From: Candidatus Magasanikiibacteriota bacterium
GTDB taxonomy: Bacteria > Patescibacteriota > Patescibacteriia > Magasanikbacterales > GWA2-37-8
Assembly (NCBI GenBank): GCA_016189025.1
Contig: JACPGS010000007.1
Span: 1,162-65,161, forward strand
Length of the DNA stretch: 64,000 nt
Direction: 5' to 3'
The notes below the pieces were generated by a model. The model worked only from the letters and a program-made list of their open reading frames with translations, had not been told where the DNA came from and searched no databases. Within the stretch, counting starts at the first letter, position 1. Every line of letters begins with the position of its first letter. The translations under genes were made by a program, and so were the position numbers. Positions 4,031-59,508 of this stretch are shown piece by piece.

Positions 4031-4217
4031 GAGACTGCAGAAGAATAGAAATGACTAGTTAGCATCAGGGCGCGACAGACGAGTGTCTTTGGGCGCGCAC
4101 CCCGATTAAATCGGGGGAGCACCCAAAGAGTGTCTGCCGCGACCAACCAAGTAAATTTTAGCAATAGCGACAGCGACCAGGCGGAAAATGACATAGTTGA
4201 CATTCTTCTACAGTCTT
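4031..4217 (+). mobile_element. MITE-like intergenic repeat, family 1, copy A (forward)
   Basis: Left end GAGACTGCAGAAGAAT, right end ATTCTTCTACAGTCTT. Core hairpin GGCGCGACAGACGAGTGTCTTTGGGCGCGC - CCCGATTAAATCGGGG - GAGCACCCAAAGAGTGTCTGCCGCGACC, plus the TTAGCAATAGCGACAGCGACCAGGCGG box. Confidence 0.85.
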
Positions 4218-4227
4218 AATAAAAACT

Positions 4228-5115
4228 CTATTTCTTGCGCGCCAGCAAAAAAAAGTTATCGCGCAGATTAAGCGAGAGCGAACGCCGGCCCCAGGCTGAC
4301 TGCTGGGCCCGGCGCGCCAGCGACGGCCAGGGCCAGTATGGTTGCCAGCGGGCGATCGTTGCCAATAGATAAGCAACCGTAAATCGCTTACCGATTTTTT
4401 CTGCCGGCAATACGGCAAATCCTAAAGCAGATAACAGCGCCGACAGATTCCGCGGATTAAAATAAACCAGGTGTTCCGGCGGCACTAACTGGTGCCAGAA
4501 ACGCCCGAGGAGCAACGCATACCAGCTGCCGGCGTCCGGAGTATTGATCGCCAGAATTCCTCCTGGCTTCAGCAAAACTAAAACCCGCTCCAGAGCAGCC
4601 TGGGGGTTAGGCAGATGCTCAATCACATCCCACAGGGTAATAACATCAAAATAATTTTCGGCCCCGGTCACCGTATCCAGGGTGCCGGTTTGGACGTCTA
4701 ACCCCTGCGCCCGCCCCCGCCCGGCGGCATAATCCGAAGGTTCCACACCACTCCCCTGCCAGCCGCGCTCGCCGGCTAATTTAACAAAATATCCGGTCGC
4801 GGCGCCCACATCCAACAGCCGCCCCCGCGCCGGCAGCAGGCGCTCTAAGCGATCCAAATATTGTAAAAAGGTACCCCGCATCGCCGCTTTGTCGGCATCG
4901 TAATCAGAATAGCCAAAACCATGGCGGCCGCCGGCAAAATACTGCTCGCCATAGAGCCCGGACCAATCGGGCTCCGGCCAGGGAAAGACAAAACGAGCGG
5001 CACAGTCCTGGCAGCGGTAAATCCGGCAGTTATTTTTAACAACAAAAAATTTACTACGGCCACTGCCGCAGACCGGACAAGGGGAAATTATTGGTTGCTC
5101 CAAATCATCTGCCAT
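4228..5115 (-). CDS. class I SAM-dependent methyltransferase with N-terminal Cys4 zinc-ribbon
   Basis: Likely start is MADDLEQPIISPCPVCGS...CQDC at 5115. It carries LLDVGAATGYF (motif I) and LKPGGIL. The track ORF extends upstream into the neighbouring gene. Confidence 0.7.
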   Translation of the reverse strand: MADDLEQPIISPCPVCGSGRSKFFVVKNNCRIYRCQDCAARFVFPWPEPDWSGLYGEQYFAGGRHGFGYSDYDADKAAMRGTFLQYLDRLERLLPARGRLLDVGAATGYFVKLAGERGWQGSGVEPSDYAAGRGRAQGLDVQTGTLDTVTGAENYFDVITLWDVIEHLPNPQAALERVLVLLKPGGILAINTPDAGSWYALLLGRFWHQLVPPEHLVYFNPRNLSALLSALGFAVLPAEKIGKRFTVAYLLATIARWQPYWPWPSLARRAQQSAWGRRSLSLNLRDNFFLLARKK

Positions 5116-5795
5116 GGCGCTAAAATGGCTTCGCGAATAATATGGCCGGAAATTTTGGATTCGCCGGTGCGGCGATTGCGGAAAGTAATCGGCAGTTCGG
5201 CAAACCGCGCCGCCGCCCGCCACAGGCGGTATTTGAGCTCAATCTGAAAAGCATAACCCGAGGCGCTGAATTGCCTTAAGTCAAGCTGGCGCAAGAGCCT
5301 GGTGGCAAGGGCATTAAACCCGCCGGTGCAGTCCGCCACCGGCAGCCGGGTAATGGAACGCGCATACCAATTGCCGCCGCGGCTTAAGAGGCGCCGCCAG
5401 CTTTCCCAGCCGATTAATTTGCCACCCGGCACGTAGCGCGAACCAACGACCACATCAGCGTTCGCGCGCGCCGCGATTAAACCGGGCAGCGCCGCCGGAT
5501 CGTGCGACAAATCCGCATCCATCATTACTATCGTCTCTACTTCTGGATCGCGCAAAACTTCAGCGAAAGCATGGCGATAAGCCGGTCCCAGGCCCTCCTT
5601 GCGCTCGCGCCGCAATACGGAAAGACGCGGAAATTGGGAACGCAAGGAGAGCGCCAGCCCGGCGGTGCCGTCCGGCGAATTATCGTCTACTATCAGTACG
5701 CGCGCTTCCGGGAGAGAACTAAAAATTCCGCTAAGCAGCGGCGGCAAATTCTCGCGTTCGTTATAGGTGGGAACGACAACGGTAACTGGCGACAC
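5088..5795 (-). CDS. GT2 polyprenyl-phosphate sugar synthase (Dpm1-like dolichol/undecaprenyl-phosphate mannosyl/glucosyl-transferase)
   Basis: VVVPTYNERENL, IVDDNSPDGT, MDADLSHDP and a VVGSRY motif are typical of the Dpm1/GtrB family. Confidence 0.8.
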   Translation of the reverse strand: MSPVTVVVPTYNERENLPPLLSGIFSSLPEARVLIVDDNSPDGTAGLALSLRSQFPRLSVLRRERKEGLGPAYRHAFAEVLRDPEVETIVMMDADLSHDPAALPGLIAARANADVVVGSRYVPGGKLIGWESWRRLLSRGGNWYARSITRLPVADCTGGFNALATRLLRQLDLRQFSASGYAFQIELKYRLWRAAARFAELPITFRNRRTGESKISGHIIREAILAPWQMIWSNQ

Positions 5796-5798
5796 AAA

Positions 5799-6944: not shown

Positions 6945-7139
6945 GATCTCAAAATTAATAAATAAAATATATGGCTGTGGATAATTTTTTGGCTAACTTG
7001 TGCTATTTATCGTTTATGGAATCAAAATGCAATTGACAAACCTCCTATTTTCTGATAATGTAGAAATACATAAACCTGTATTCCGAACTGTCACCGGACG
7101 GTGGCGTGGCTGGGACATCCAGCATAGGAACGTGGTTGA

Positions 7140-7166
7140 AAAGAGCCCTTCGGGGCTGTTTTTTGT
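7140..7166 (-). terminator. hairpin AGCCC-TTCG-GGGCT with flanking T/A runs, immediately after the DUF3800 gene stop
   Basis: The sequence aaaagagcccttcggggctgttttttg is a tetraloop hairpin with U-tracts on both strands. Confidence 0.5.
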
Positions 7167-7792
7167 TATTTAAACTTCCATTCGTCCTGGATATGATTTT
7201 TAATTATTTTCTTATACACTACAGCGTCGGTCTTGAAATCCTCATACGAACGATGAATACTACCAGCAATCATATCGGCCATTTGAATGAGCACATTCTC
7301 CCTTGAATCCACTAACTTGCAATGCTGCACAATACGTCGCTCATCACTATTTAATTGTGAACGTAGATAACTCACAAAGCTTCTCCGAAAAACACGATCC
7401 CCGCTGCCGTCTACCTTTATCTTCGCATCCAGAATTTTTCCATCACTATATTGCAACACCAACTTAATGGCATAACTATAAAACGACCTCTTATTTGTTC
7501 GCAGCTCCTCACTTCGAATAATAGACTTATCAATAACTAAACTCCGCACCGCAAATGAGAAAGGTAAAATTGTTCTCAAGAATTGTTCGCGGACAGTCTT
7601 GCGTGATTTCGCGAATTTAAACTCTACCGTATCGGGGAAACCCAGTCGGCGCCGCAGTTCCTTGATGGCCACGGCCGCCTTTTCTGCTTCTAGTGGATCG
7701 CGAAAAATAATCAAGGAAATGATAAAGTACCGGCTCGAACCCCGGTCTAGCTTAAATCCCGGATCACCAGAATCATCTATGAATACGAGCAT
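7166..7792 (-). CDS. DUF3800-family protein
   Basis: 208 aa with N-terminal MLVFIDDSGDPGF and later IQMADMIAGSI, resembling DUF3800 signature motifs. Local GC is about 38-40%, versus about 60% in the flanks. Confidence 0.5.
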   Translation of the reverse strand: MLVFIDDSGDPGFKLDRGSSRYFIISLIIFRDPLEAEKAAVAIKELRRRLGFPDTVEFKFAKSRKTVREQFLRTILPFSFAVRSLVIDKSIIRSEELRTNKRSFYSYAIKLVLQYSDGKILDAKIKVDGSGDRVFRRSFVSYLRSQLNSDERRIVQHCKLVDSRENVLIQMADMIAGSIHRSYEDFKTDAVVYKKIIKNHIQDEWKFK

Positions 7793-8080: not shown

Positions 8081-8731
8081 TTACTCCTTCACTTGGTAGA
8101 GCGCCAAATGGAATAAATCCAGGGGCGCCGGGAGGGGAAGTTTTTTCAGCTTTAATAGTTCAAACCTGGAAGCGCGGATAATACGCTCTACGCCGCGGGC
8201 ATTGTGATAATGCACGCCGGCGCCAGGGCCGTGCTCCATCGAATAAGTTCCCTTGAGCACAAAGCGCAGGGTTTTGTACCAGGCCGACTCCACCGGCTCG
8301 CTGGTAATCAGGTAGCCGCCGGGCTTAAGAACGCGCCGGAATTCGGCGAGAGGCGGCAGCAAGTCGGCGATGTGCTCCAGCGTATCCAAAGTAACAATAG
8401 CGTCAAAGGAATGGCTGGGGAATTGCAGGGCATTCAGGTCCTGCACGGCAAAGTGCGCCGGCGCGAGCTTTTGCTTAAGTTCCCCGACTGACGGGTTCAG
8501 ATCAATCCCCCAAATCTCGCCGCCGGTCCAGCCCGATTTCAGTACTAGCTCAATAAATGCTCCCTGGCCGCAGCCGACGTCTAAAAAATTCCTCGCTTCA
8601 GTTTGCCGCAGAAAATCACGGGCAATCGTCAGGCGCCGATGGAATAACCAGCGCACCAGCGGATTGGCCGATTGATACTCGGGCACGATTTCGTGGAGTC
8701 CGATGTCAAATTTTTGGCGCGTGTCCAGCAT
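8081..8731 (-). CDS. class I SAM-dependent methyltransferase
   Basis: FLDVGCGQGAF (motif I), LKPGGYL and an IVTLDTLEHI-type post-I motif. Confidence 0.7.
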   Translation of the reverse strand: MLDTRQKFDIGLHEIVPEYQSANPLVRWLFHRRLTIARDFLRQTEARNFLDVGCGQGAFIELVLKSGWTGGEIWGIDLNPSVGELKQKLAPAHFAVQDLNALQFPSHSFDAIVTLDTLEHIADLLPPLAEFRRVLKPGGYLITSEPVESAWYKTLRFVLKGTYSMEHGPGAGVHYHNARGVERIIRASRFELLKLKKLPLPAPLDLFHLALYQVKE

Positions 8732-8734
8732 ATT

Positions 8735-8924
8735 GAGACTGTAGAAGAATTGAAAAATCAGTTAGCATCGGGGCGTGGCAGACGAGTGTCTTTGGGCGCG
8801 CATCCCCCGCGTCGGCGGGGGGAGCACCCAAAGAGTGTCTGCCACGCCCGACCAGGTTAAACTTAGCAATAGCGATAGCGACCAGTTAAATAGCAGTATT
8901 TCCGGCATTCTTCTACAGTCTCAA
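8735..8924 (+). mobile_element. MITE-like repeat, family 1, copy B (forward)
   Basis: Perfect 16-bp TIR GAGACTGTAGAAGAAT / ATTCTTCTACAGTCTC. The core has apical loop TCCCCCGCGTCGGCGGGGGG. Confidence 0.85.
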
Positions 8925-8940
8925 TATTGAAAAGGTTGGC

Positions 8941-10179
8941 TTATTTTGTAATATTTTGAAAATGACGGGTGATAATGCCGGAGCGTTGCAGATAATCAGT
9001 AAAAAATTTGACTAATTCCTGCGCTACTAACTGGTGGCCGCGGACGTTCAGGTGGCCGTTAAAATACTGGCCGCGCCAGTTATAGAGCGGGGTGGTGGAA
9101 GCCTGTCGGTAGTGGCCGGCAAAGGCCGGCGTCAAATCTACCAACGGCCACTGGCCCTCTTTAGCCTGCTCGGCTAACCAACTATTAGGTAATCGCAAAT
9201 CCCAGCCTGGCTCCCGCAAAGCCGGAAGTTCTTGCTGGAGTGCTGACCATAACCCGTGATCTACCTGCTCGGCTTGCGGCAGGTATGCTACTACAAAAGC
9301 ACTCCCATCAGCAACCGCCCGCTCCGCTGCCTGCTGCAGCAACTGGCGGGTAAATTTATACACCGTGCGGTGCGCCTCGGGCAGCGGATTATGAAAAATA
9401 AAAAAAGTGGGATGCACCCCGTTTTGGCTGGCTCCCATCACCCCGCGATCGTGCAAACCCGCCCGCACCGCTAAATCCGCAAGCCAGGGCACCTCGCGCA
9501 CCCGCCGATCTACTACCTGCGCCAAACGCGAGGTTTGCAGCAAGCGGAATTTAAGATCGCGGCGCCCGGCGTTGAGATTCGCCTGCGCTTCGGGAATATC
9601 CTGCCAGTCGGCGGGATTAGAGGAGAGAAAACGATCGCGGTATTTCAGGTAATACTGGTTATTCTCAAAATCATTGGGAAAGAAAAAGTATACTACCACG
9701 TCGGGACGATATTTGCGCACATACTGCTGATAGCGCAATAATTCTTCCCCCGTGCCCTGGCTGCCCACGGCAAAATTCATTACTTCAAAATTAATTTGCG
9801 GAGAGCGGGCATTAAGGTCGCGCTCCAGGAGAGCGGCAAAAGTGGAGGTAACGTCCACCTGCAGCGCCTCGGTAAAGGAATCGCCGAGGAAGGCCAGGCG
9901 CAAGGTAGAGGTCGGATGATCAATAGTATAATCGCGGCCGACAAATCCTTCGCGGTTAGTCTGTACCAATACCGGCGTGTTGGTTTCCGGCTCGGGAATC
10001 ATGGCATTAAGATTGCGGCGATGGATAGTATAGCCGCGCTCGTCCGCGGTATAGTAAGCATCAAGCGGCGTGCGCCGGGGCGGGACTAATAATCGAGCTG
10101 CTACTTCCAATAAAAGTAAAGAAGAAACGATGCCGAACAGAGCCAATAATAATTTTCCCAGGAAAGCGCGGGGCTTCAT
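8941..10179 (-). CDS. SGNH/GDSL-family hydrolase with N-terminal signal anchor (putative polysaccharide esterase/acyl-transfer accessory)
   Basis: Probable start MKPRAFLGKLLLALFGIVSSLLLLEVAA at 10179. It contains the FLGDSFTE (GDS) block. Confidence 0.55.
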   Translation of the reverse strand: MKPRAFLGKLLLALFGIVSSLLLLEVAARLLVPPRRTPLDAYYTADERGYTIHRRNLNAMIPEPETNTPVLVQTNREGFVGRDYTIDHPTSTLRLAFLGDSFTEALQVDVTSTFAALLERDLNARSPQINFEVMNFAVGSQGTGEELLRYQQYVRKYRPDVVVYFFFPNDFENNQYYLKYRDRFLSSNPADWQDIPEAQANLNAGRRDLKFRLLQTSRLAQVVDRRVREVPWLADLAVRAGLHDRGVMGASQNGVHPTFFIFHNPLPEAHRTVYKFTRQLLQQAAERAVADGSAFVVAYLPQAEQVDHGLWSALQQELPALREPGWDLRLPNSWLAEQAKEGQWPLVDLTPAFAGHYRQASTTPLYNWRGQYFNGHLNVRGHQLVAQELVKFFTDYLQRSGIITRHFQNITK

Positions 10180-10184
10180 AATTT

Positions 10185-11888: not shown

Positions 11889-12077
11889 ACCAAAATATTA
11901 AAGACTAAGGCCGATACCGTCCGCATTTTCGCAGCGACAGCTTGTTTGAGCCAGCGCTCGGCTCGTTGCCATGGCTGCGGTCTGCAGAGCCGAGCGCGTG
12001 CCCCGAGCGATGCAGCGAGGGGCGGCGAGTTCTGGCGCCAGAAAATGCGGATGGTGAGGCCGATATACTTGGTATTC

Positions 12078-12767: not shown

Positions 12768-12774
12768 AATTTTT

Positions 12775-12848
12775 GAGACTGTAGAAAATACCGGCAATAC
12801 CCACTGTTTAACTGGTCGCTATCGCTATTGCTAAAACTCACTTGGTTG
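12775..12848 (-). repeat. MITE family 1, truncated copy C (right arm only, reverse orientation)
   Basis: GAGACTGTAGAAAAT...CTGGTCGCTATCGCTATTGCTAAAACTCACTTGGTTG matches the reverse complement of the TTAGCAATAGCGACAGCGACCAGG...ATTCTTCTACAGTCTC arm. The hairpin core is absent. Confidence 0.7.
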
Positions 12849-17708: not shown

Positions 17709-18881
17709 TTACTCCTCAAAATAATCAATAATTTTCCCAATCACCGTATCCAAATTATGATGCGCGCGAACAAAACCAATCGCTGCTTGATTAGGCAACT
17801 TTTCCGGCTTTAGTATACCATTCTGCCACATTTTTTCAATGGTTTGGGCCAGGGCCGCCGCGTCTCCGGCGGGGAAGGTCCACACTACTCCCGCGCGCTC
17901 GGCATCAGCATAGGCAGGGCTAGAAGTGATAACGTAGCGGCCGGCGGCGAGCGCCTCCAACACTACCTTATCCGCGCTGCCGGTGCGGCTGGGGTGGATA
18001 AGAAGATGATAACGATGATAAATACTGGGCATCTCCAGATAATCCTTCCGCTCACTGCGGAAACCTACTGCCCTGCCCCGGCTTGGTCGCTCGGTCGCGG
18101 CAGACACTCTAGGTGCTCGCGGAGCTGCGCGCCTAGAGAACTCGTCTGCGGCTCCCTCGCTCATTCGTAATTCAAAGTTATTAGTCATTTCCTCTAAATA
18201 CTTTTGATAATGCTTATCGGCTGCCGTAATTGGACTGCCGACAATGGTAAAACGTAAATGGGGAAAATCAGGCACCTGCTGGAGTTGGATTAAGGCTTGG
18301 AAGATAATTTCGTAATTCTTCACTGCACTAATCCGGCCGACCGCTAAAAGCCACAATTCATGAGGATCGGCAATCTCTTCCGGTCCCGCCGCGAATAATT
18401 CCACCGGAATCCCGTGCCCCACCACCTCCACCTTGGCGCTCGGCAAGCGAAAACTCTCCGGCGAGGCGGTGAAAATTTTGTCCGCTCGCTTTTCCGCCTG
18501 CTTCAACCACCAGTTAACTGATTTATGCACATACCAAAGGAGAATTTTTTTCTGATGTTTCCGCCACCACCAACCGCCGAGCACCACATATTCCGGATTC
18601 ATGTGAACGAAAACACCATCATAATCATTTTGATACTGCCGGATCAAGCGACGAAAACGGAAATAATAAACCAAACGCCGTAGTAGTTTAGGGAGTCTTA
18701 ACATCTTTTCCTTTCCCAGCGACAATACGGTAACATTATTCGGCAACTCAAATTCACCTTGTTCCAAACAAATCACAATCAAGCGCTCGGTGCGCGCCGA
18801 GAGGCGGCGCAGCCATTCAAGAAAAAACCCCAGCGCCGGATCGGCGCGGTCTACTTTTTGAGTAATCACCAATAAACGCAT
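17709..18881 (-). CDS. GT4 glycosyltransferase carrying an in-frame insertion of a MITE family-1 core
   Basis: GT4 C-terminal motifs are IHPSRTGSADKVVLEALAAGRYVITS. An insert of about 35 aa, AADEFSRRAAPRAPRVSAATERPSRGRAVGFRSER, is encoded by the repeat core. Confidence 0.7.
   Translation of the reverse strand: MRLLVITQKVDRADPALGFFLEWLRRLSARTERLIVICLEQGEFELPNNVTVLSLGKEKMLRLPKLLRRLVYYFRFRRLIRQYQNDYDGVFVHMNPEYVVLGGWWWRKHQKKILLWYVHKSVNWWLKQAEKRADKIFTASPESFRLPSAKVEVVGHGIPVELFAAGPEEIADPHELWLLAVGRISAVKNYEIIFQALIQLQQVPDFPHLRFTIVGSPITAADKHYQKYLEEMTNNFELRMSEGAADEFSRRAAPRAPRVSAATERPSRGRAVGFRSERKDYLEMPSIYHRYHLLIHPSRTGSADKVVLEALAAGRYVITSSPAYADAERAGVVWTFPAGDAAALAQTIEKMWQNGILKPEKLPNQAAIGFVRAHHNLDTVIGKIIDYFEE
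18084..18168 (-). repeat. MITE family-1 hairpin core inserted in-frame within a GT4 CDS (copy K)
   Basis: CTTGGTCGCTCGGTCGCGGCAGACACTCTAGGTGCTCGCGGAGCTGCGCGCCTAGAGAACTCGTCTGCGGCTCCCTCGCTCATT aligns with the intergenic copies, for example 52440..52540. The reading frame is preserved. Confidence 0.75.
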
Positions 18882-20118: not shown

Positions 20119-20234
20119 CGCCGGCGGAATGCGGAATCAAAATGAGTAGCCAAGCGATAACAAAAAAGACGCGGCAATAATTATTGCCAGCAGCCGATTA
20201 TTGTTAATTAAACGCCGCCAAGACTGAAACATAG

Positions 20235-20422
20235 TAGATTGCAGCAGAATAGGAACAACTAATTAGCATCAGGGCGCGGCAGACGAGTATCTTTGGGCGC
20301 GCAGCCCCGCGTAAGCGGGGGGAGCACCCAAAGAGTGTCTGCCGCGACCAACCAGGCAATCCTAGCAATAGCGATAGCGACTAGGCGGATAACGATATAG
20401 TTGGTATCCTTCTCCAGTTTCA
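20235..20422 (+). mobile_element. MITE-like repeat, family 1, copy D (forward; degenerate TIRs)
   Basis: TAGATTGCAGCAGAAT ... core with loop GCCCCGCGTAAGCGGGGGG ... TAGCAATAGCGATAGCGACTAGGCGG ... ATCCTTCTCCAGTTTC. Confidence 0.8.
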
Positions 20423-34086: not shown

Positions 34087-34145
34087 AACAGCAGAGTAAG
34101 CCCGGTGTAAGCAATAATGAGCGAGGGAAATGAGCGAGGGAGTGG

Positions 34146-34225
34146 TAGACGGGTTCCCTACGCGCGCACCCCCGCGTAGGCGGGGGGAGCACGGAGGGTG
34201 TCTACCACGACCGAGCGACCAGGTT
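34146..34225 (+). repeat. divergent MITE family-1 core (copy J, core only)
   Basis: GTGGTAGACGGGTTCCCTACGCGCGCACCCCCGCGTAGGCGGGGGGAGCACGGAGGGTGTCTACCACGACCGAGCGACCAGG. The hairpin architecture is retained with a GCGT-type apical loop. Confidence 0.6.
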
Positions 34226-39769: not shown

Positions 39770-39804
39770 AATTCCTTTTGCTTACTCTGATCATTACTAA
39801 ACTG

Positions 39805-39982
39805 AAATTGTTGCAGAAGAATCCAAACTATTTCACCTGATTCGCCTGGTCGCTGTCGCTATTGCTGGGACTGCCTGATTGGTCGCGGCAGACACTCTTT
39901 GGGTGCTCCCCCGATTTAATCGGGGTGCGCGCCCAAAGACACTCGTCTGCCGCTCCCTGATGCTAACTGGTTTCTTCAAATT
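39805..39982 (-). mobile_element. MITE-like repeat, family 1, copy E (reverse)
   Basis: TTGCAGAAGAAT...CCTGGTCGCTGTCGCTATTGCT...GGTCGCGGCAGACACTCTTTGGGTGCTCCCCCGATTTAATCGGGGTGCGCGCCCAAAGACACTCGTCTGCCGC... Confidence 0.85.
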
Positions 39983-39990
39983 ATCTCAAA

Positions 39991-40785: not shown

Positions 40786-40826
40786 TTATATATAGAGAGC
40801 GTTTTAATTAGCACTATTGATTCACT

Positions 40827-41006: not shown

Positions 41007-41009
41007 CTT

Positions 41010-41345: not shown

Positions 41346-41400
41346 TCCTCCTCTCACCGGGAGGATTTTAGTTTGACCGCAATACTTAGCCTGCTATAAT

Positions 41401-41590
41401 GAAACTGCAGAAGAATATCAACTATTTCGTTATCTACCTGGTCGCTATCGCTATTGCTGGTAACTGCCTGGTTGGTCGCGGCAGACACTCTTTGGGTGCT
41501 CCTCCCGACTAAAGTCGGGACTGCGCGCCCAAAGATACTCGTCTGCCGCTCCCTAATGCTAACTGGTATTTTTAATTCTTCTACAGCCTC
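41401..41590 (-). mobile_element. MITE-like repeat, family 1, copy F (reverse)
   Basis: AAACTGCAGAAGAAT ... core with apical loop CCCGACTAAAGTCGGGA ... ATTCTTCTACAGCCTC. Confidence 0.85.
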
Positions 41591-41604
41591 ATAATACAAA
41601 AAGT

Positions 41605-46072: not shown

Positions 46073-46100
46073 GAACAGAGTGGAAAATTGATGCCGCCGG

Positions 46101-48902: not shown

Positions 48903-48962
48903 AGAGCTTCCTCCTAAAAATAAATAAAATTAATACGAATTAAATTTTCGCTTCCGGAGAAT

Positions 48963-48991
48963 ATTATAGCATATCCTAACCCAAGTGATAA
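48963..48991 (-). promoter_or_regulatory. sigma-70-like promoter (TTATCA-N17-TATAAT) with AGGAGG Shine-Dalgarno, for the Cys-rich protein gene
   Basis: On the minus strand the sequence reads ttatcacttgggttaggatatgctataat...ttaggaggaagctctATG. Confidence 0.55.
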
Positions 48992-48996
48992 ATAAA

Positions 48997-49025
48997 AACA
49001 CGCCCCGTCAAGGGGGCGTGTGGAT
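48997..49025 (-). terminator. rho-independent terminator after the DsbA-like gene
   Basis: CACGCCCC-gtcaa-GGGGCGTG, followed on the minus strand by tttttattt. Confidence 0.6.
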
Positions 49026-49045
49026 AACCTGATTTACTGCTTGCT

Positions 49046-49885: not shown

Positions 49886-49967
49886 AGGTAAAAAATGAAA
49901 GGTGCCAAGTCAAATCAGTATACTACAGCGCTGCGGCAAAGTCTATATAGACTTCATGTGGATAAAC

Positions 49968-50040
49968 TGAAACTGTAGAAGAATTGAAAAACGACAGCGA
50001 CCAGGCGGAAAATGATATAGTCGGTATTATTCTACAGTCT
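49968..50040 (+). repeat. MITE family 1, internally deleted copy G (TIRs plus right arm, no hairpin core)
   Basis: AAACTGTAGAAGAATTGAAAAA-CGACAGCGACCAGGCGGAAAATGATATAGTCGGTATTATTCTACAGTCT. Confidence 0.75.
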
Positions 50041-50044
50041 AAAG

Positions 50045-52369: not shown

Positions 52370-52382
52370 ATCCAGATTGAGG

Positions 52383-52556
52383 TTGTTGAAGAATATGACA
52401 TTGTTATCCGCCTGGTCGCTGTCGCTATTGCTAAAATTTACTTGGTTGGTCGCGGCAGACACTCTTTGGGTGCTCCCCCGATTTAATCGGGGTGCGCACC
52501 CAAAGACACTCGTCTGCCGCTCCCTGATGCTAACTGATTATTCCTATTCTTCTAGA
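52383..52556 (-). mobile_element. MITE-like repeat, family 1, copy H (reverse)
   Basis: GTTGAAGAAT ... core with loop CCCGATTTAATCGGGG ... ATTCTTCTAG. Confidence 0.85.
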
Positions 52557-52598
52557 ATATTAATATCGTAAGCGTTCTTCTGAAGACTTCAGATTAAG

Positions 52599-52723
52599 TA
52601 GGACTTACGCGTTTGGCTGCAGTTCAAGGCGGCAGCGAGCACCGGAGCGAGACGTAGCCAAAGCCTACGGCGAGCGAGGAGCGTAGCGACAACGCCGAAA
52701 TGCACCAAACGCGTAAGTCCTAT
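52599..52723. repeat. long inverted repeat: 18-bp perfect arms TAGGACTTACGCGTTTGG / CCAAACGCGTAAGTCCTA around an ~89-bp GC-rich spacer
   Basis: It lies between MITE H and the 3' end of the HMA-permease gene. The spacer has internal repeats (GGCGGCAGCGAGC / GGCGAGCGAGG / CGTAGCC). Confidence 0.5.
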
Positions 52724-52727
52724 TAAG

Positions 52728-54368
52728 CTATGAACTGCTCTTCGGCAGCACCGTAAAACTCCCCTGCACCATGCCCATGCTGCAGCTAAAGGCAATGCGG
52801 CCCTGGCGGGGCGGGGTAAATTCAATCAGATTCGGGCCGCGCGTTAAATAGCGCTGGATATTTAATTCGCGGGAGACCAATACCGAGGTGCAGCCCGCGG
52901 CCCGGGTACCGTCCACTTCCCAGCGCACTGGCGTGCCCTGGCGCACCACAAAATTAGCCGGCGTAAATCCGGTCGGCTCCACGCTCATTTTAATTACCTG
53001 CTTGCCGCTAATAATTTTTCCGCTTAATTCCTGCGCCTCCGCGTTAGCGCTGCCCACCGGCAACAGATGCGCCAGCGGGTAACCGGCGATATTAAAGGCA
53101 TTCTGAAAATTCCACAGGCCTAAAATTACCACCAAAGCGCCGGAAAATTGCACAAACCACCGCCCAGCCCGGCCTTTCAAACCGCTGGAAGCAAACCCCA
53201 AAATCAGCAAAGCCGGCGCCGTGCCCAGGGCAAAGGCCAACAGTACCGTGGCCGCGGCGGTAAAACTGCCGGTAGTTAAGGCATAGAGTTGCAGCGCCTG
53301 GGTAAAGCCGCAGGGAATAAAGAAAGTGGCGGCGCCCAAAGCAAACGGCGTGCCCCAATGATTTTTCCCTTCTACTGCCAATAGCCGATGGGAAATGCTT
53401 TTGGGCATCCGGGGCAACAGTTCGCGGAGCCACACCGGCGCCCAGCCCAGCATTTCTAACCCCATCATAAACATATAGAGCGCGGCGAGCAGGGTGATGA
53501 ACGCGGTAACCAAGGGAGAGGGAACCAGAACGCGCCCGACTACTCCCAAGAGCCCGCCCAGTAAGGCGTAGCTCGCCACCCGCCCGGCGACAAACAACAA
53601 AACCGGAGTAAAGCGCCCCGACCACCCGGCCCCGGCATATCGTTCGTTAAATTTAGCCGCCGCCGAAAGCAGCAGGCCGCCGGTAACCGCAATGCAGGAA
53701 GAGCTGGCCGCGACCAGCCCCACCAAAAATACCGCGCCAAAAGTCATTGTGGAGCCAGTGCCAAAGTTTGACTGCCACAGACCCAGGCGCGACAATAATG
53801 TATACAATAGAAAGATTAAGGCCGTGAGCCCCAGAAATCTGATGAATGATACCCGGTGCGCCGGCTGACTACGGGGCGCCGGAGCAGACGAAACCGAACG
53901 ATTAGCCGCGACGGAACGCACCCGATAATGAGTAGCGCCGAGCGCTTGCGCCAAATTTTGCTGAAGTAAATTAGTGTCGGCCGGAGTGCCGGGCGCCAGC
54001 GTCAGGTGCGCTACCCCGCGCCCCGCATTAACCTCTACTTTAGCCACGCCGGGGAGCTTCCCCCAGGCGCGCTCAATCGTTACTTCGCAGCTGCGGCAGG
54101 TCATGCCGTCGATCGCTACCGTCAGGGCGCGCGGGCTCGCCACCGCCTCGGCTGCTACTGCCGCGGCCTGCCAGCCGGCTTGGCGCAACGCTTCGCTCAC
54201 TGTCGCTGCCGTCAAATTAGCGTGGCCGATTACCCGCACCAAAGATTTAGCGACGTTAACATCTACCTGCCTGACGCCGGCTAAATGAATTAAACGCTCA
54301 CGCAACCGCTCGCCAGCGCCGGATTCCAGCGCCGGCTGCAGAGAAAATTTATAGGCTACTGGTTCCAT
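52728..54368 (-). CDS. HMA-domain membrane protein (two HMA domains + TauE/SafE- or DsbD_2-like permease + C-terminal cupredoxin-like domain); copper homeostasis
   Basis: GMTCRSCEVTIE (HMA), about 7 TM segments with Gly-rich helices, and a C-terminal beta-rich domain ending in SCSMGM. Confidence 0.5.
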   Translation of the reverse strand: MEPVAYKFSLQPALESGAGERLRERLIHLAGVRQVDVNVAKSLVRVIGHANLTAATVSEALRQAGWQAAAVAAEAVASPRALTVAIDGMTCRSCEVTIERAWGKLPGVAKVEVNAGRGVAHLTLAPGTPADTNLLQQNLAQALGATHYRVRSVAANRSVSSAPAPRSQPAHRVSFIRFLGLTALIFLLYTLLSRLGLWQSNFGTGSTMTFGAVFLVGLVAASSSCIAVTGGLLLSAAAKFNERYAGAGWSGRFTPVLLFVAGRVASYALLGGLLGVVGRVLVPSPLVTAFITLLAALYMFMMGLEMLGWAPVWLRELLPRMPKSISHRLLAVEGKNHWGTPFALGAATFFIPCGFTQALQLYALTTGSFTAAATVLLAFALGTAPALLILGFASSGLKGRAGRWFVQFSGALVVILGLWNFQNAFNIAGYPLAHLLPVGSANAEAQELSGKIISGKQVIKMSVEPTGFTPANFVVRQGTPVRWEVDGTRAAGCTSVLVSRELNIQRYLTRGPNLIEFTPPRQGRIAFSCSMGMVQGSFTVLPKSSS

Positions 54369-54398
54369 AGGAAGCCACTATAGCATAAATTTATAATC

Positions 54399-54428
54399 TT
54401 GACAAATAACCGCCCCCGTGTTAGAATC
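54399..54428 (+). promoter_or_regulatory. consensus sigma-70 promoter TTGACA-N17-TAGAAT
   Basis: cttgacaaataaccgcccccgtgttagaatcattatcATG. The ATG is at 54435. Confidence 0.6.
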
Positions 54429-54434
54429 ATTATC

Positions 54435-54887
54435 ATGAACAAACCCTCAAGAAAAAGAGTCTCTGGGCTACTGGCCGGCGGCCTGATTATTTTAGTAGCG
54501 CTGATTTATGTTTGTTCCCCTGGCCTGACCGGAATGAGCGCAATGATAACGGGCAGCCATGCCTCCCCCTGCCAAAATTACTCGGGGGATGCCTCCCTTA
54601 ATAATGCTATGAGCATGGTGAATTGTCTTAATGCTCATCTGCCCGCGGCCGGCGCGATTGCCCAAGACTTTACTACGGCGGCAGCGCTGCTGCTGTTGCT
54701 GGTTTCGGCGGCCATCGGTTATTGGCTGAAACGGGATATTTTATCATCCTGGTTCCGCTCCGCTTTAACGCGCGGCCAATATTGGTACCGTCGCTATCGC
54801 CTGGCCATCAAATCGCTCTGGGAAAGAAAATTATTGCGCTTCCTGAATCTTTTGGGTAATTACACGGCAGTCGCTTTGGCAGTATAG
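54435..54887 (+). CDS. hypothetical membrane protein (2 TM, Cys-containing loop)
   Basis: MNKPSRKRVSGLLAGGLIILVALIYV...HASPCQ...VNCLNAH... Confidence 0.4.
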   Translation: MNKPSRKRVSGLLAGGLIILVALIYVCSPGLTGMSAMITGSHASPCQNYSGDASLNNAMSMVNCLNAHLPAAGAIAQDFTTAAALLLLLVSAAIGYWLKRDILSSWFRSALTRGQYWYRRYRLAIKSLWERKLLRFLNLLGNYTAVALAV

Positions 54888-54989
54888 TTTTCCCCCTCGC
54901 CGTACCGGCGTTTAATTTAAGATGGGGAAACTGATAGTCCAAAGCGATTTTTTGTTGTAAAAATTTTATTTATCCTACCATTAGCACTA

Positions 54990-55964
54990 TTGATATTTAA
55001 TTCTATGTTAGACCCAACAGCAAAAAAGTATCTGCTTTACGGAATCGGATCGGGCGCTGCCGTGGTAGCGATCGCCGTGGTGTTTCTGCTCGGCGTAATC
55101 TACGGACCAGACTTGCGCGGACGTCTTACCAATAAAACAGCCGGCATCGCCAACGTTGCCGCGAGTCCTGGCATAACCGCGCCCCCGGCTGCTACGGAAG
55201 CCGAGGTGGCTCGCCTCGCCGAATCGGTAATCCCTTCGGCCGGTATTGAGCTGCCGGTGAGCTGGGGTGATTTGGGCAGGCAATTGGTGGCAAACGGAGT
55301 AATTGACCGCAATCAATTCCTGGCCCTTTACCAGGGCCGAGGCGGCCTACTGCCGGACGAGCAAAAATTATTGGACGGGAATAACAACGGCCGGCTGAAA
55401 ATCACCCCGGAAAACTCCGGCTTCCTGCTGAATTTGCTCTGGGCCCTGGGGCTAGGCAATAAAAATCCCATTCTGGATACCGGGCCGATGGTGGACAAAC
55501 GCTACGGCGGCGCCGGCAACTTTGCCTCTACCGGCGGCTGGTCGCTGGCTAAAGGCAAGGCGATGGATCATTACAGTAAACATGGATTCATTAAACTTAA
55601 CCCCACGCAACAAGCGCTGGTGGAGCGGGTCTCCCAAGGGATTTATCGACCCTGCTGCAATAATGCCACGTACTTCCCGGACTGCAACCACGGCATGGCG
55701 ATGCTGGGGCTGTTGGAATTGATGGCGGCGAAAGGGGTGAGCGAAGCCGAAATGTATAAAACGGCGCTGCAGGTGAATGCTTACTGGTTCCCCGATACTT
55801 ATCTGACGCTCGCTAAATACGAGGCCACCAACAACACGGCCTGGGAGCAGGTTGACCCAAAAAAATTGTTAAGCGCCGAGTATTCCAGCGCCGGCGGTTT
55901 CCGCGCCATTCAATCGCGGGTGCAGCCGGTGCAGCAGGGCGGCGGCGGCGGGTGCGGGGTGTAA
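54990..55964 (+). CDS. hypothetical membrane-anchored extracytoplasmic protein
   Basis: 324 aa with an N-terminal TM. Has YRPCCNNATYFPDCNHGM and a C-terminal GGGGGCGV. No family assignment. Confidence 0.35.
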   Translation: MIFNSMLDPTAKKYLLYGIGSGAAVVAIAVVFLLGVIYGPDLRGRLTNKTAGIANVAASPGITAPPAATEAEVARLAESVIPSAGIELPVSWGDLGRQLVANGVIDRNQFLALYQGRGGLLPDEQKLLDGNNNGRLKITPENSGFLLNLLWALGLGNKNPILDTGPMVDKRYGGAGNFASTGGWSLAKGKAMDHYSKHGFIKLNPTQQALVERVSQGIYRPCCNNATYFPDCNHGMAMLGLLELMAAKGVSEAEMYKTALQVNAYWFPDTYLTLAKYEATNNTAWEQVDPKKLLSAEYSSAGGFRAIQSRVQPVQQGGGGGCGV

Positions 55965-55977
55965 CCTAACGCTTATT

Positions 55978-56508
55978 ATGGAAAACGAATCACAAATTGA
56001 GTTAAGTAGAAAAGAGCGGAAAGAATTGCGCCGCGAACAACGCCTTGAAGAAAGGCAAAAAAATGCCGGGCAACGCGTTATAAGGCGTGCCGTAAAAATC
56101 GCCCTGATAGCGATTATAACAGCCGGCAGTATCGCGGCTTTTGGTTGGTATATCGCTACTCGCCCGCCTATTCCTAAAGAGGAAATACTTTCCCGCCGCG
56201 GTTTACACTGGCACCCGGCACTGGCAATTTTCGTCAAAGGAGAAAAACAGACAATACCCGCGAACCTTGGCATTGGCGCGGTGCATAATCCTATGCACAC
56301 TCACGATTCAAGCGGTGTGATTCATCTGGAGTTTCCCGGCGTTGTTCGCAAAGATAACCTGAAGCTCGGCCGCTTTTTTGAAGTGTGGGGCAAGGACCTG
56401 ATGGAGTTCGGCTCCGTGGTCAAAATGACAGTCAACGGCGAGGAAAATGCCGAGCTGCAAAGCTACCTGATGAAAGACGGCGATAAAATCGAATTACGAT
56501 ATGAATAG
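55978..56508 (+). CDS. hypothetical membrane-anchored protein
   Basis: 176 aa. A charged N-terminus is followed by TM IALIAIITAGSIAAFGWYIA. Confidence 0.35.
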   Translation: MENESQIELSRKERKELRREQRLEERQKNAGQRVIRRAVKIALIAIITAGSIAAFGWYIATRPPIPKEEILSRRGLHWHPALAIFVKGEKQTIPANLGIGAVHNPMHTHDSSGVIHLEFPGVVRKDNLKLGRFFEVWGKDLMEFGSVVKMTVNGEENAELQSYLMKDGDKIELRYE

Positions 56509-56571
56509 AAATCTATTCGCCCCGACTAAGTCGGAACGCGACGACCGCTAGCCAATTGATATATTTTAGCC
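56508..56571 (+). repeat. family-2 repeat, short copy
   Basis: GCCCCGACTAAGTCGGAACGCGACGACCGCTAGCCAATTGATATATTTTAGCC. Confidence 0.6.
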
Positions 56572-56582
56572 GATTTATCCTT

Positions 56583-57455
56583 ATGGACTTGATCTCTGGA
56601 ACTTCGCTAGTCGCCGCCTTTATTGCCGGCGTGGCGGCGCTGTTTGCGCCCTGCTGCATTACCGTGCTCTTGCCTTCTTACCTGGGTTCTATCTTCCGGG
56701 AGCGCCGTCGCGTGTTGGTGATGACCTTTATCTTCTTTTTGGGAGTGCTTTTGGTATTTTTGCCGCTGGGGCTGGGGTCGGCCGCTTTCGGACAATTGTT
56801 AACCAAATATCACAACACCATCTTTCTCGTCGGCGGCATCTTTCTGTTGGTGCTGGGGCTGACGCTGGTCTTCGGCATCCACTTCTCTTTACCGTGGCGC
56901 GTTAATCCCGCCCTCAAGAGCCATCACCCGGCCTCGGTTTTTGTGTTAGGAATATTCGCCGGCATTGCCACCACCTGCTGCGCGCCGGTGTTGGCCGGCG
57001 TGTTAGCGCTCGCCGCGCTGCCCGGCTCCCTGTTTTGGGGGGTGATGTACACCTTAAGCTATGTGCTGGGGATGGTAGCGCCGCTGTTCTTTTTGTCCGC
57101 GGTGCTGGATAAAACGCAGGCTACCAAAAAATTGATGGCGCTGAAGCGGCCGCTACAATATTCCCTGGGACCGGTTAAAGTAAACCTGACGCTGTCCGAA
57201 GCAATTTCGGGCCTGGTATTTATTGCCATGGGCATTCTCACCATCAGTCTGGCGTTTACCAATCAACTGACAATGCGCTCGGGTTTCCAGGTAAGCGTAA
57301 ACATCTATCTGACTAAGCTCCTGAATGCCCTCCAGGGTGTGGTCACTTTGCTGCCCGAGTACGGCTGGGCCCTGCTCTTTATCGGGCTGCTCGTTGCCTT
57401 ACTGATTAAAATAATTTTTATTCTTAAGAAAGAATCCTATGAGCAAAAACAATAA
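56583..57455 (+). CDS. CcdA/DsbD-family transmembrane thiol-disulfide (electron) transporter
   Basis: FAPCCITVLLPSYLG in TM1, a second Cys pair IATTCCAPVLAG, and 6+ TM segments. Confidence 0.55.
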   Translation: MDLISGTSLVAAFIAGVAALFAPCCITVLLPSYLGSIFRERRRVLVMTFIFFLGVLLVFLPLGLGSAAFGQLLTKYHNTIFLVGGIFLLVLGLTLVFGIHFSLPWRVNPALKSHHPASVFVLGIFAGIATTCCAPVLAGVLALAALPGSLFWGVMYTLSYVLGMVAPLFFLSAVLDKTQATKKLMALKRPLQYSLGPVKVNLTLSEAISGLVFIAMGILTISLAFTNQLTMRSGFQVSVNIYLTKLLNALQGVVTLLPEYGWALLFIGLLVALLIKIIFILKKESYEQKQ

Positions 57456-58125
57456 ACCAGGGGACCAGAAAACTAACGCCATTGTCTTGGGAATTATCGC
57501 CGGGATTACCGTGGTGATTGTAGCGGCGATCGGAATGTTTTCCCGCGGGGGAAACCCCGAAAGCAGCGCCAGGGAGGGGAGCAGCGCCCCGCCGGCCGCC
57601 GCCGATAGTATGGCCGATCATCATGGCGGCGGCGCCCCGCCCCCGCCGGCAGTTCCCCTGGACGCCCTGGTGGGGAAACCCCTGCCGGATTTTACCCTGG
57701 CGGACCGCGACGGCAAAATTTACAATAAAGAAACGCTCCGAGGGAAAACCGCCGTGTTGTTCTTTAACGAGGGGCTGATGTGCTACCCGGCCTGCTGGCA
57801 GCAGATTGCCGGGCTCGCTGCCGACCCCCGGCTGCAGCGCGCCGATGCGGTAATGTTGTCCGTGGTAATTGACCCGCCAGGGGAATGGCAGCGGGCGATA
57901 AATAAAATGCCGGAGTTGGGGAAAGCAAACGTGCTCTTTGATGCTAATTCCACTGTTTCCCGGCAGCTCGGCATGCTCACCGCCCCCTCTTCCATGCACT
58001 ACGGATCTTTCCCCGGCCATACCTACCTGGTGATTGATAAAGAAGGCGTGATAAAACATGTTTATGACGACCCCCGAATGGCGCTGCATAACGATCAACT
58101 GGTAGAGGAGCTGAAAAAGCTGTAA
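57439..58125 (+). CDS. membrane-anchored thioredoxin-fold redoxin (TlpA/SCO-like, C-x3-C)
   Basis: N-terminal TM. GKTAVLFFNEGLMCYPAC lies in a redoxin-like fold. Confidence 0.5.
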   Translation: MSKNNKPGDQKTNAIVLGIIAGITVVIVAAIGMFSRGGNPESSAREGSSAPPAAADSMADHHGGGAPPPPAVPLDALVGKPLPDFTLADRDGKIYNKETLRGKTAVLFFNEGLMCYPACWQQIAGLAADPRLQRADAVMLSVVIDPPGEWQRAINKMPELGKANVLFDANSTVSRQLGMLTAPSSMHYGSFPGHTYLVIDKEGVIKHVYDDPRMALHNDQLVEELKKL

Positions 58126-58134
58126 ACTATTCCC

Positions 58135-58896
58135 ATGATCCCCTATTTCTCGCTGACTGCCATTAACATCGGCCCGGTGCGCCTGCATCTCTGGGGGCTG
58201 ATGGTGGCGCTGGCCTTTGGCGCTGCCCTGGGTGTGGCAGCGCGGCGGGCCAAACGCGCCGGATTGAATACTGCAGTCTTGTTGGATTTAGCGGTCTGGA
58301 TTATAATCGCCGCCTTCCTGGGAGCGCGTTTGGCCCATGTATTTTTGTATAATTGGTCCTATTTTTCCCTCTCTCCCTGGGAGATCATTAAAATCTGGCA
58401 GGGTGGGCTATCATCGTTCGGCGGATTTATCGGCGCGGCAGCCGCAGCGGTAATTTACGCGCGCCGGAACCAGCTGAACTTTTGGCACTATGCTGATGCT
58501 ATTATGTACGGCTTCCCCTTGGGCTTAGGGGTAGGCCGGCTGGGATGCTTTATTACTCATATGCACCCGGGCAGATTGAGCAATTCCCTCCTGGCCGTGG
58601 CTTACCCGGGCGGAGCGCGGCTGGACCTGGGGCTACTGGAATCGCTGTTCGGTTTCCTGCTGTTCGGAGTTTATTTTTTCTGGCTGCGCCAAACGCCCCG
58701 AAAAATATTTCTGCCTCTGACTATGCTGATTTACGGCAGCGTCAGATTTATGCTGGACTTCAACCGCGCTACCGACATAATCGGCGCCGATGCCCGTTAC
58801 GCCGGTTTAACGCCGGCCCAGTACGGATCGCTGTTATTGGTGCTGGGATCCGTTTATTTACTGATTGCCCATCCCTGGGCTAAAGCATCAGACTGA
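58135..58896 (+). CDS. lgt: prolipoprotein diacylglyceryl transferase
   Basis: Lgt blocks LHLWGLMVALAFG, FLGARLAHV, GGLSSFGG and GVGRLGCF. Confidence 0.85.
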   Translation: MIPYFSLTAINIGPVRLHLWGLMVALAFGAALGVAARRAKRAGLNTAVLLDLAVWIIIAAFLGARLAHVFLYNWSYFSLSPWEIIKIWQGGLSSFGGFIGAAAAAVIYARRNQLNFWHYADAIMYGFPLGLGVGRLGCFITHMHPGRLSNSLLAVAYPGGARLDLGLLESLFGFLLFGVYFFWLRQTPRKIFLPLTMLIYGSVRFMLDFNRATDIIGADARYAGLTPAQYGSLLLVLGSVYLLIAHPWAKASD

Positions 58897-58909
58897 AAAT
58901 ACTAACCTT

Positions 58910-59293
58910 ATGCCTTACTGTTACCAAAAATCAGTCCCCTATCAGTACCAAGAAGCGCTCGCCAAAACTAAACAAGCCCTGGCAGCCGAAGGATTTGGCG
59001 TGCTGACGGAAATTGACGTCAAGGCTGCCCTGAAAGCCAAATTGAACGCTGACTTTGACAATTATGCCATTCTCGGCGCCTGCCACCCGGCGCTGGCTTA
59101 TCAGGCCTTAAATACCGAAAAAACTATCGGCGTGCTGATGCCGTGCAATGTTATTGTCTACGAAGATCAGGGCCAGGTACAGGTAGCGGCAATCCGGCCG
59201 ACCATCTCCCTGGAGCGAATCAATAATCCGGCGCTCTTGCCGCTTGCCCAAGCAGCCGAAGCAAAACTGAAACAAGCAATAGATAACATCTAA
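58910..59293 (+). CDS. DUF302-domain protein
   Basis: EGFGVLTEIDVKAALKAKL...YAILGACHP...VLMPCNVIVYE. Confidence 0.55.
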   Translation: MPYCYQKSVPYQYQEALAKTKQALAAEGFGVLTEIDVKAALKAKLNADFDNYAILGACHPALAYQALNTEKTIGVLMPCNVIVYEDQGQVQVAAIRPTISLERINNPALLPLAQAAEAKLKQAIDNI

Positions 59294-59320
59294 CCTGTTA
59301 ATCATTACTTAATAACCTGA

Positions 59321-59508
59321 GGCTGTAGAAAAATTAAAAAACCAGTTAGCATCAGGGCGCGGCAGACGAGTGTCTTTGGGCGCGCAGTCCCGACTTTAGT
59401 CGGGAGGAGCACCCAAAGAGTGTCTGCCGCGACCAACCAAGTGAGTTTTAGCAATAGCGACAGCGACCAGGCGGATAATGATAAAGTGAGTGTGCTTCTA
59501 CAGTTTCA
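59321..59508 (+). mobile_element. MITE-like repeat, family 1, copy I (forward)
   Basis: GGCTGTAGAAAAAT ... core with loop TCCCGACTTTAGTCGGGA ... TTAGCAATAGCGACAGCGACCAGGCGG ... GCTTCTACAGTTTC. Confidence 0.85.

Follow-up and report, generated by a model that had tools for sequence, protein, structure and literature searches.

The 64,000-nucleotide stretch analyzed here, referred to as the window (contig JACPGS010000007.1 of a Candidatus Magasanikiibacteriota bacterium, a groundwater-type organism with a small genome), carries a family of short repeated elements that are, with high probability, transposable elements of the miniature inverted-repeat class (MITEs). Seven full copies (187-192 bp) and four partial ones occupy approximately 2.6% of the 64 kb. 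The full copies are built from terminal inverted repeats (TIRs), short conserved boxes, linkers, and an internal hairpin. The element is of a known kind; what is described here is a lineage-restricted MITE family with an unusually well-preserved internal hairpin. Overall, the copies are probably old and mostly immobile MITEs in which the hairpin has been kept as a strand-independent stem-loop in transcripts. The parts of this reading differ in strength and are discussed separately below.

The initial annotation of this DNA reported at least 11 copies, a count borne out by profile searching. With an nhmmer profile built from the seven full copies (the first copy served as the blastn query), the full copies were recovered at 4013-4230 (+), 8717-8937 (+), 20220-20434 (+), 39789-39995 (-), 41388-41607 (-), 52367-52576 (-), and 59304-59520 (+), with E values of 4e-62 to 4e-70. 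The same search placed partial copies at 12770-12848 (-), 18090-18206 (-), 34137-34226 (+), and 49990-50047 (+) (E values of 4e-14 to 4e-10). A covariance model of the hairpin, run with the filters off, identified exactly nine hairpins in the window (67-115 bits), the next match scoring 17 bits. The TIR, GAGACTGTAGAAGAAT, has nine matches with at most two mismatches in the window versus none in 100 shuffles. An artefact of assembly or chance has to be considered for a metagenome assembly, in which phasing across 26-32-nt identical runs can be unreliable. It is nonetheless highly improbable, given the number of TIR matches, the 13-30% difference between copies, their unique flanks, and the recurrence of the same junctions in independent Logan assemblies from three runs. 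Logan contigs of the same organism (L001 and L089-L091; SRR12113422, SRR12113401, and SRR12113431) end or begin in the conserved 3′ arm of the hairpin or in the TAGCAATAGCGAC box. Because contigs of all three runs break inside this arm or box, the element family evidently fragments k-mer assemblies of this genome.

Reading through the element, TIR-L (16 nt) and a short linker lead to the TTAGCATCAGGG box and a hairpin of 77-80 nt; after this come a linker, the TAGCAATAGCGACAGCGACCAGGCGG box, a further linker, and TIR-R. The TIRs, approximately 16 bp long, read (T)GAGRCTGTAGAAGAAT ... ATTCTTCTACAGYYTC(A). In the copies at 4031, 8735, 41401, 59319, and 49969, the 16-bp TIRs have zero to two mismatches, and in those at 20235, 39805, and 52383 they are degenerate. 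The hairpin is GC-rich and imperfect. Its outer stem (GCGGCAGAC/GTCTGCCGC) is followed by an asymmetric internal loop, an inner stem (TCTTTGGG/CCCAAAGA), and a partly paired GCGCA/GGAGC segment. The apex is a 6-7-bp mini-hairpin, of which three types occur among the copies. Thus, the first description holds for the TIRs, the TTAGCAATAGCGACAGCGACCAGGCGG box, and the long, imperfect stem, as well as for the existence of three kinds of apical hairpin and of copies in both orientations. In six-frame translation no frame is both open and conserved in all copies, because differences in loop length shift every frame; a reading of the element as a small-peptide gene was rejected. The earlier label "MITE-like element" is supported and strengthened by the TIRs, the small size (prokaryotic MITEs being shorter than about 300-500 bp), the lack of a conserved open reading frame (ORF), the copy number, and, as discussed next, by target-site duplications (TSDs) and two empty sites.

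The initial annotation had noted no obvious TSD, which turned out to be wrong, since TSDs are present at four of the seven copies bearing both ends. With GAG...CTC taken as the termini, the duplications are exact at the copies at 41401 (ATTAT/ATTAT) and 39805 (AGTTT/AGTTT), and those at 8735 (ATATT/A-ATATT) and 59319 (AACCT/A-AACCT) have one additional A each. All four targets are of the form ANNNT. With termini of the TG..CA type (TGAG...CTCA), adjacent repeats of 3-4 bp are found at the same four of seven copies; three of these were scored by script, and the GTT at 39805 was read by hand. In controls, random sites gave P(k>=3) = 0.026, and such a repeat was seen in 5 of the 42 mismatched flank pairs, none of these reaching 4 bp. 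Termini of the form 5′-TG...CA-3′ with 3-4-bp duplications are characteristic of the IS3 family, and GAG... ends with short duplications are found in IS5 subgroups (ISfinder summaries). A parent of the IS3/IS481 or IS5 type is a lead only; no transposase or full-length insertion sequence with these ends was found.

Comparison with syntenic relatives, in which the gene order is EamA-glycoside hydrolase-Aa_trans-(576 aa)-helix-turn-helix (HTH)-sigma-anti-sigma-(1230 aa)-Wzy, provides two empty sites. Neither the element nor the hairpin occurs in the syntenic relatives examined. Among four different relatives, the gap between the sigma and anti-sigma genes is 7 nt (L085-L088) or 2 nt (L092/L093), or the two genes overlap (L094/L095), versus 221 nt in the window, where the copy at 39805 fills it. 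In L092, 58 nt separate the HTH gene from the 576-aa gene, and this spacer holds a terminator hairpin and a TTGCAG-17-TATAAT promoter, with no element; the window spacer measures 259 nt. Here, the promoter reads TTGACC-16-TATAAT, followed by the 192-bp element and then by ATAAT-ACAAAAAGT-ATG. Because the element splits TATAAT and has ATAAT on its far side, it sits in the -10 box, and ATAAT is duplicated. Therefore, transcripts from this promoter would have to cross the element to reach the DUF11 gene. In one of the relatives (L085, GCA_964478235.1; 10543-10551), the 7-nt sigma/anti-sigma spacer is CGAGACT, which matches the first six TIR bases (GAGACT). As a TIR footprint this string was rejected as a probable coincidence, given that the other relatives (L092 and L094) do not have it.

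The synteny also bears on whether the elements are integron attC-like sites bounding cassettes. The layouts are superficially alike (outer and inner stems with an unpaired spacer between them, plus a terminal hairpin that varies), and GTTAGCA adjoins the hairpin. However, the copies are in mixed orientations and lie 1.6-19 kb apart, the chromosomal genes found between them are of housekeeping type and syntenic with those of relatives, and TSDs are present. Moreover, the window has no integrase, and there is no inverse core site (RYYYAAC ... GTTRRRY); the second TTAGCA is a direct repeat. On these grounds, the attC explanation is effectively refuted. The related proposal that the copies flank low-GC cassettes is not supported either. 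The stretch at 40.5-41.0 kb is a divergent promoter region with the same gene architecture in relatives, and that at 21.5-24 kb has an element copy on one side only.

Folding of the entire element gives a single long hairpin, with z = -6.2 for the sense strand and -8.8 for the antisense strand. The internal hairpin alone has a folding energy of -44 to -62 kcal/mol and is equally stable on either strand. This fold, its strong z-score, and the covariation in the stem (see below) are what would be expected of independently transcribed, structured small RNA genes, in which the "TIRs" would represent the closing helix. Other features argue against this idea, which we regard as very improbable. No element matched an Rfam family at the gathering thresholds; in E-value mode, the region 4000-4250 gave no hits (E up to 10), and the region 34090-34340 gave weak matches far below the gathering score (E 1.8-3.2 over the hairpin, the others being on an adjoining terminator hairpin). 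A scan for promoters and terminators revealed no site common to the copies, and a canonical intrinsic terminator was rejected because there is no U-tract 3′ of the hairpin. In addition, orientation shows no bias, both strands are equally stable, mismatches in the TIRs are non-compensatory, and one hairpin lies in frame within a gene. The TSDs together with the empty sites indicate insertion as DNA.

The distribution of substitutions along the element distinguishes the hairpin from its surroundings. Differences from the consensus amount to 5 of 343 positions (1.5%) in the hairpin arms, 6 of 112 in the TTAGCA box, and 20 of 196 in the second box. The corresponding figures for the TIRs and the linkers are 39 of 227 and 73 of 317, respectively (17-23%), with linkers 1, 2, and 3 individually at 16-29%. 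The arms differ from both the linkers (Fisher test, p = 7e-20) and the TIRs (p = 4e-12). Whole-copy pairwise identity is 70-87%. The copies with wrecked TIRs, at 39805 (with an 8-nt deletion) and 52383, still have only zero to one change per 49 arm positions, and the unpaired bases of the internal loop are largely conserved too. Because the TIRs and linkers have diverged by 15-30% and several ends are broken, the copies are old, and most of them are probably immobile. The hairpin arms, in contrast, have stayed constant since insertion while the ends decayed.

Variation within the hairpin is concentrated in the apical mini-hairpin, where it is compensatory, and compensatory changes are seen in the outer and inner stems as well once two hairpin-only copies, described below, are included. 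Double-sided changes occur at 8 of 28 pairs, with 96.7% of cells paired, an outcome reached by none of 500 shuffles and by no slid control. The initial annotation had proposed selection on structure rather than sequence. Such a pattern is confined to the apical mini-hairpin plus a few stem pairs, the arms themselves being near-invariant in sequence.

The main rival to an RNA role is that the uniformity of the hairpin results from gene conversion without function. Here, the elements would be the same MITEs, with a hairpin that serves the host in no way. The palindromes would be cleaved and repaired from other copies, resulting in concerted evolution, and hairpin-templated repair would give the compensatory changes. 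In keeping with this explanation, the variants are mosaic, all four gametes being present at 275 of 465 informative site pairs. Between the copy at 20235 and the hairpin-only copy at 34137, which is diverged elsewhere, the apical hairpins are 94% identical, and there is no orientation bias relative to transcription. The mosaicism points to exchange between copies, to which short-read phasing could contribute. However, conversion tracts must then stop approximately 10-20 nt from the stem, on both sides and in every copy, to leave linkers at 16-29% and arms at 1.5%. In addition, the unpaired internal-loop bases are largely kept, and some of the mosaicism may be due to assembly phasing. We consider concerted evolution without function to be rather unlikely.

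Returning to MITEs with a retained hairpin, the following sequence of events can be envisaged. A DDE-type transposase, acting in trans from outside the window, would have moved the elements by a cut-and-paste or copy-and-paste mechanism. Insertion occurred into short AT-rich gene-boundary spacers, at ANNNT targets near stop or start codons and once in a -10 box, with duplication of 5 bp, or of 3-4 bp if the termini are TG...CA. Subsequently, the ends decayed, while the hairpin arms remained near-identical and the apical mini-hairpin changed by compensatory substitutions only. The elements would be co-transcribed with the flanking genes, and the hairpin would be retained as a very stable, orientation-independent stem-loop in read-through transcripts. 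Such a stem-loop might protect, process, or partition mRNA at gene boundaries, similar to REP, ERIC, and Correia elements, and gene conversion between copies would add to the homogeneity. We advance this RNA stem-loop role of the hairpin tentatively, as a possibility that the analysis raises.

Several observations weigh against this scenario. TSDs are found at only four of the seven ends-bearing copies, and where precisely the element ends is ambiguous, so that the duplication measures either 5 bp or 3-4 bp. Conservation of the TIRs does not significantly exceed that of the linkers (p = 0.11), which is unusual for an active MITE family. No transposase domain was detected in the window ORFs scanned, and there is no autonomous element with matching TIRs (TGAGRCTGTAGAAGAAT-type ends) within the window. 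With respect to the proposed role at the RNA level, the hairpin is not followed by a U-tract, and the full copies show no orientation bias relative to the flanking genes (four antisense and three sense). Furthermore, the mosaicism is heavy, as 275 of the 465 informative site pairs fail the four-gamete test, and some of the pattern could be the product of gene conversion or of short-read assembly mis-phasing. Even without selection, hairpin-templated repair can give rise to compensatory changes in a DNA palindrome.

Alternatively, the hairpin might be a sequence-specific module that acts as a binding or cleavage site for one host or element protein, on the folded DNA strand or on RNA. We judge this to be unlikely. 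If true, a MITE would have spread the hairpin to dozens of gene boundaries in a ~1-Mb genome of the Candidate Phyla Radiation (CPR), and polysaccharide, metal-resistance, and sigma/anti-sigma operons would share one control point. In that case, the existence of hairpin-only copies (among them the one in frame) would speak for a module able to spread or persist alone.

The two hairpin-only copies (18083-18166 and 34128-34222) share approximately 100 nt with the MITE core, from GAGGGAG to GACCARG, and have unrelated outer flanks and several compensatory stem changes. They had been described, together with the copy at 49968, as deletion derivatives. This description fits 49968, which keeps the TIRs without the hairpin; the hairpins listed at 18084 and 34146 instead constitute a diverged hairpin-only subfamily and are not simple recent deletions. 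The first (18083..18166, - strand) comprises 84 nt, or 28 codons, in frame in a GT4 glycosyltransferase gene, 17709-18881(-). Orthologs of this protein (51-60% identity) are 345-372 aa long versus 390 aa here and lack precisely this segment, and the paralogs in the window are also without it. In an AlphaFold2 model (mean pLDDT 85.8), the single low-confidence segment, residues 244-268, is the insertion, located between the helix 220-245 and the strand 272-275; a PDB sequence search with the GT4 protein returned no hits. The model suggests that the insertion is a tolerated disordered loop, as in Rickettsia palindromic elements (RPEs). The second hairpin-only copy (34128..34222, + strand), with a tandem AATGAGCGAGGGA duplication in front of it, has undergone compensatory changes in each of its stems and is found 41 nt upstream of the Wzy-like gene 31843-34086(-). 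The equivalent spacer in relatives contains a terminator and a promoter only, with no hairpin copy.

These copies raise the question of whether the hairpin is the true mobile or recognised unit, REP/REPIN-like or IS200/IS605-like and dependent on an HUH enzyme of the Y1 or RAYT type, that once landed in a TIR element. Occurrence without TIR context, in one case coding and in the other in a 5′ region, would be in accordance with this, as would the conservation of the arm sequence, which is expected for sequence-specific recognition of a folded strand. Each TIR also contains, as read from the sequence, a GTAG tetranucleotide, which is typical of REPs. The TIR copies, however, have TSDs, variable left flanks, and inverted-repeat ends, which are DDE and not HUH single-strand properties. 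There is no Y1/RAYT (Y1_Tnp-type) gene within the window, and hairpin-only copies number only two. Moreover, because the hairpin occupies the same internal position in all seven full copies, it was part of the ancestral MITE. An HUH-type unit is hence improbable.

The positions of the full copies are largely at gene boundaries. The copy at 4030..4218 (+) has intact TIRs with one mismatch each and no clear TSD, and it fills the spacer from the stop of a methyltransferase gene, 4228-5223(-), to the start of the ORF 2219-4030(-). That at 8734..8923 (+) has perfect 16-bp TIRs and the TSD ATATT (ATAT with TG..CA termini); it separates the stop of 8941-10260(-) from the start of 8081-8731(-), and its outer stem is longer via compensatory changes. 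The copy at 20234..20422 (+), with degenerate TIRs and no TSD, touches the stop codon of the glycosyltransferase (GT) gene 20423-21415(-), and its apical hairpin is CCCCGC-GTAA-GCGGGG. At 39803..39988 (-), the left TIR has lost approximately 8 nt, the right TIR has gained an insertion of 3 nt, and AGTTT forms the TSD. This copy is located, as the initial annotation had it, between an ECF sigma factor gene (39991-40542, -) and its anti-sigma partner, a DUF5667 gene (38444-39769, -). The copy at 41400..41591 (-) is the one in the promoter -10 box of the DUF11 gene, 41605-43326(+); its 5-bp TSD is ATAAT, corresponding to ATTAT in the orientation of the element. At 52383..52560 (-), between the HMA/DsbD gene 52728-54368(-) and a Cu-ATPase gene, the outer ends are decayed and 1 of 49 positions in the hairpin arms is changed. 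Finally, the copy at 59318..59508 (+) has the TSD AACCT (or AACC) and is situated between a DUF302 gene, 58865-59293(+), and a methyltransferase gene, 59524-60141(+).

Two partial copies retain TIRs. A right-half fragment at 12770..12848 (-), located 3 nt past the stop codon of an asparagine synthase gene, comprises linker 2, the TAGCAATAGCGA box, and the right TIR, and a Logan contig terminates inside it. An internal-deletion derivative at 49968..50042 (+) has both TIRs and the CGACAGCGACCAGGCGG part of the box, without the hairpin, and is separated by 2 nt from the point where the Cu-ATPase gene stops. For most copies, the distance to the stop codon of the upstream gene is 0-24 nt, and the entire spacer is occupied. 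This placement at gene boundaries fits an AT-rich target preference combined with purifying selection against other insertions in a gene-dense genome.

The likeness of this family to known small repeats is functional and architectural only, as judged by descriptions. In Correia elements, the TIRs are 26 bp long and themselves form the RNA hairpin, and the duplication is TA. The present family is similar in that it consists of TIR-bearing MITEs that are very numerous in a small genome and located at gene boundaries (some Correia copies also alter promoters). It differs in having 16-bp TIRs, a 3-5-bp duplication, and a separate internal GC-rich hairpin as the conserved part. RPEs have no clear TIRs or TSDs and are AT-rich. 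The similarity to them lies in the reduced genome and in the 84-nt hairpin that adds 28 residues to GT4 as what is modeled to be a disordered loop; here, in contrast, only 1 of the 11 copies is intragenic. REPs and REPINs are mobilised by RAYT and lack TIRs and TSDs, and no transposase is known for ERIC. With ERIC/IRU and REP/BIME of enterobacteria and with REPINs, the family shares imperfect palindromes at gene boundaries, a strongly conserved core, and a function in either orientation, if the hairpin has one. It is set apart from ERIC and REP by its classic TIRs and TSDs. In the literature, the Correia elements of Neisseria (CREE/NEMIS) are described as 100-155-bp MITEs with TIRs that are found at gene boundaries and co-transcribed with adjacent genes, giving hairpins cleaved by RNase III (PMC10969869). 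RPEs are known as in-frame insertions in coding genes, tolerated as surface peptide segments, and ERIC alters mRNA stability in transcripts in a manner involving RNase E (PMC10969869).

At approximately 55% G+C, the window carries genes for polysaccharide synthesis, for metal resistance, and for ECF sigma and anti-sigma factors. Its MetK shares 77-80% identity with proteins of metagenome-assembled genomes (MAGs) of Patescibacteria and Magasanikiibacteriota. The ECF sigma factor has an identical NCBI protein in a Candidatus Magasanikbacteria MAG, and the next homologs are at 62-65%. On the basis of these MetK and sigma factor identities, the source is a CPR genome without close sequenced relatives. 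Searches outside the window gave no indication of the element beyond this organism. An exact 23-mer of the 3′ arm had no matches in GTDB representative genomes; a 20-mer had three matches in JGI metagenomes, all by chance and without the element; and the core and TIR pair had none in IMG/VR. Blastn of the element against plasmid and phage collections gave no match. Profile, covariance-model, and blastn searches of 95 fetched loci, including approximately 180 kb from the closest relatives, found nothing beyond the organism's own Logan contigs, and the TIR is absent from all 95 loci. The concatenated six-frame translation of the element matched none of 5.8 billion proteins, and no predicted protein overlapping a copy was found. 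A literature search yielded no description of MITEs in CPR bacteria, nor of the TIR or core strings.

CPR/Patescibacteria genomes are tiny and gene-dense, and the present family shows that such a genome can carry a dense MITE family. The tolerated insertion sites include stop and start codons, a -10 box, a sigma/anti-sigma gap, and an in-frame loop of an enzyme, and one internal hairpin outlasted the decay of the transposon ends. In practical terms, the repeats break short-read assemblies of this lineage, and the profile together with the covariance model could help to scaffold and annotate the genome. Should the hairpin be functional, the family would be a compact case of a mobile element that supplies a reusable regulatory or structural module of RNA or DNA.

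Other features of the window were recorded in the course of the analysis. A single-copy hairpin of 166 nt (11905-12070; -91.5 kcal/mol, z -5.4) with terminal inverted repeats of approximately 22 bp lies between the ORFs 10185-11888 and 12078-12797. It matches the hairpin model weakly (17 bits), and its GAGCGA/GCGAGTTCT strings recall the hairpin-only copies, of which it may be a third and very diverged relative, unless it is an element of another sort. At 34270-34320, near the second hairpin-only copy, a strong, bidirectional-looking terminator hairpin (GGCAAAA..CCCCCCGCCAGCGCGCGCTGGCGGGGGG..TTTTGCC) follows a 1263-aa gene, and L085 has an equivalent.

Three copies of a 33-nt palindrome (core TTTGTATAC-N5-GTATACAAA), spaced 73-79 nt apart, are present at 40825-41009. 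Their location is the divergent promoter region (26% GC) that separates the ECF sigma gene from an HTH_17 gene, with the third copy extending over the start of the HTH ORF. None of the fetched relatives has the motif. These palindromes look like candidate operators of the HTH protein.

Two regions differ in gene content from the relatives. In L085 and L092, the glycoside-hydrolase gene is close to the amino-acid-permease gene; here, approximately 14 kb (~46100-60430) separates the two. The region encodes a 933-aa protein, DsbA, a Cu-type P-ATPase, HMA/DsbD, Lgt, DUF302, a methyltransferase, and tRNA-Val, includes three element copies, and looks like an inserted metal/redox island. At 43385-44796, MetK and tRNA-Ile are positioned between the DUF11 and permease genes; because these two genes are adjacent in L092, this represents a local rearrangement relative to the closest syntenic contig. 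Elsewhere in the window, an Rfam DUF3800-IX RNA motif match (7073-7141, +; 54 bits) adjoins a DUF3800 gene, 7166-7792(-), and is followed by a terminator-like hairpin at 7144-7157.

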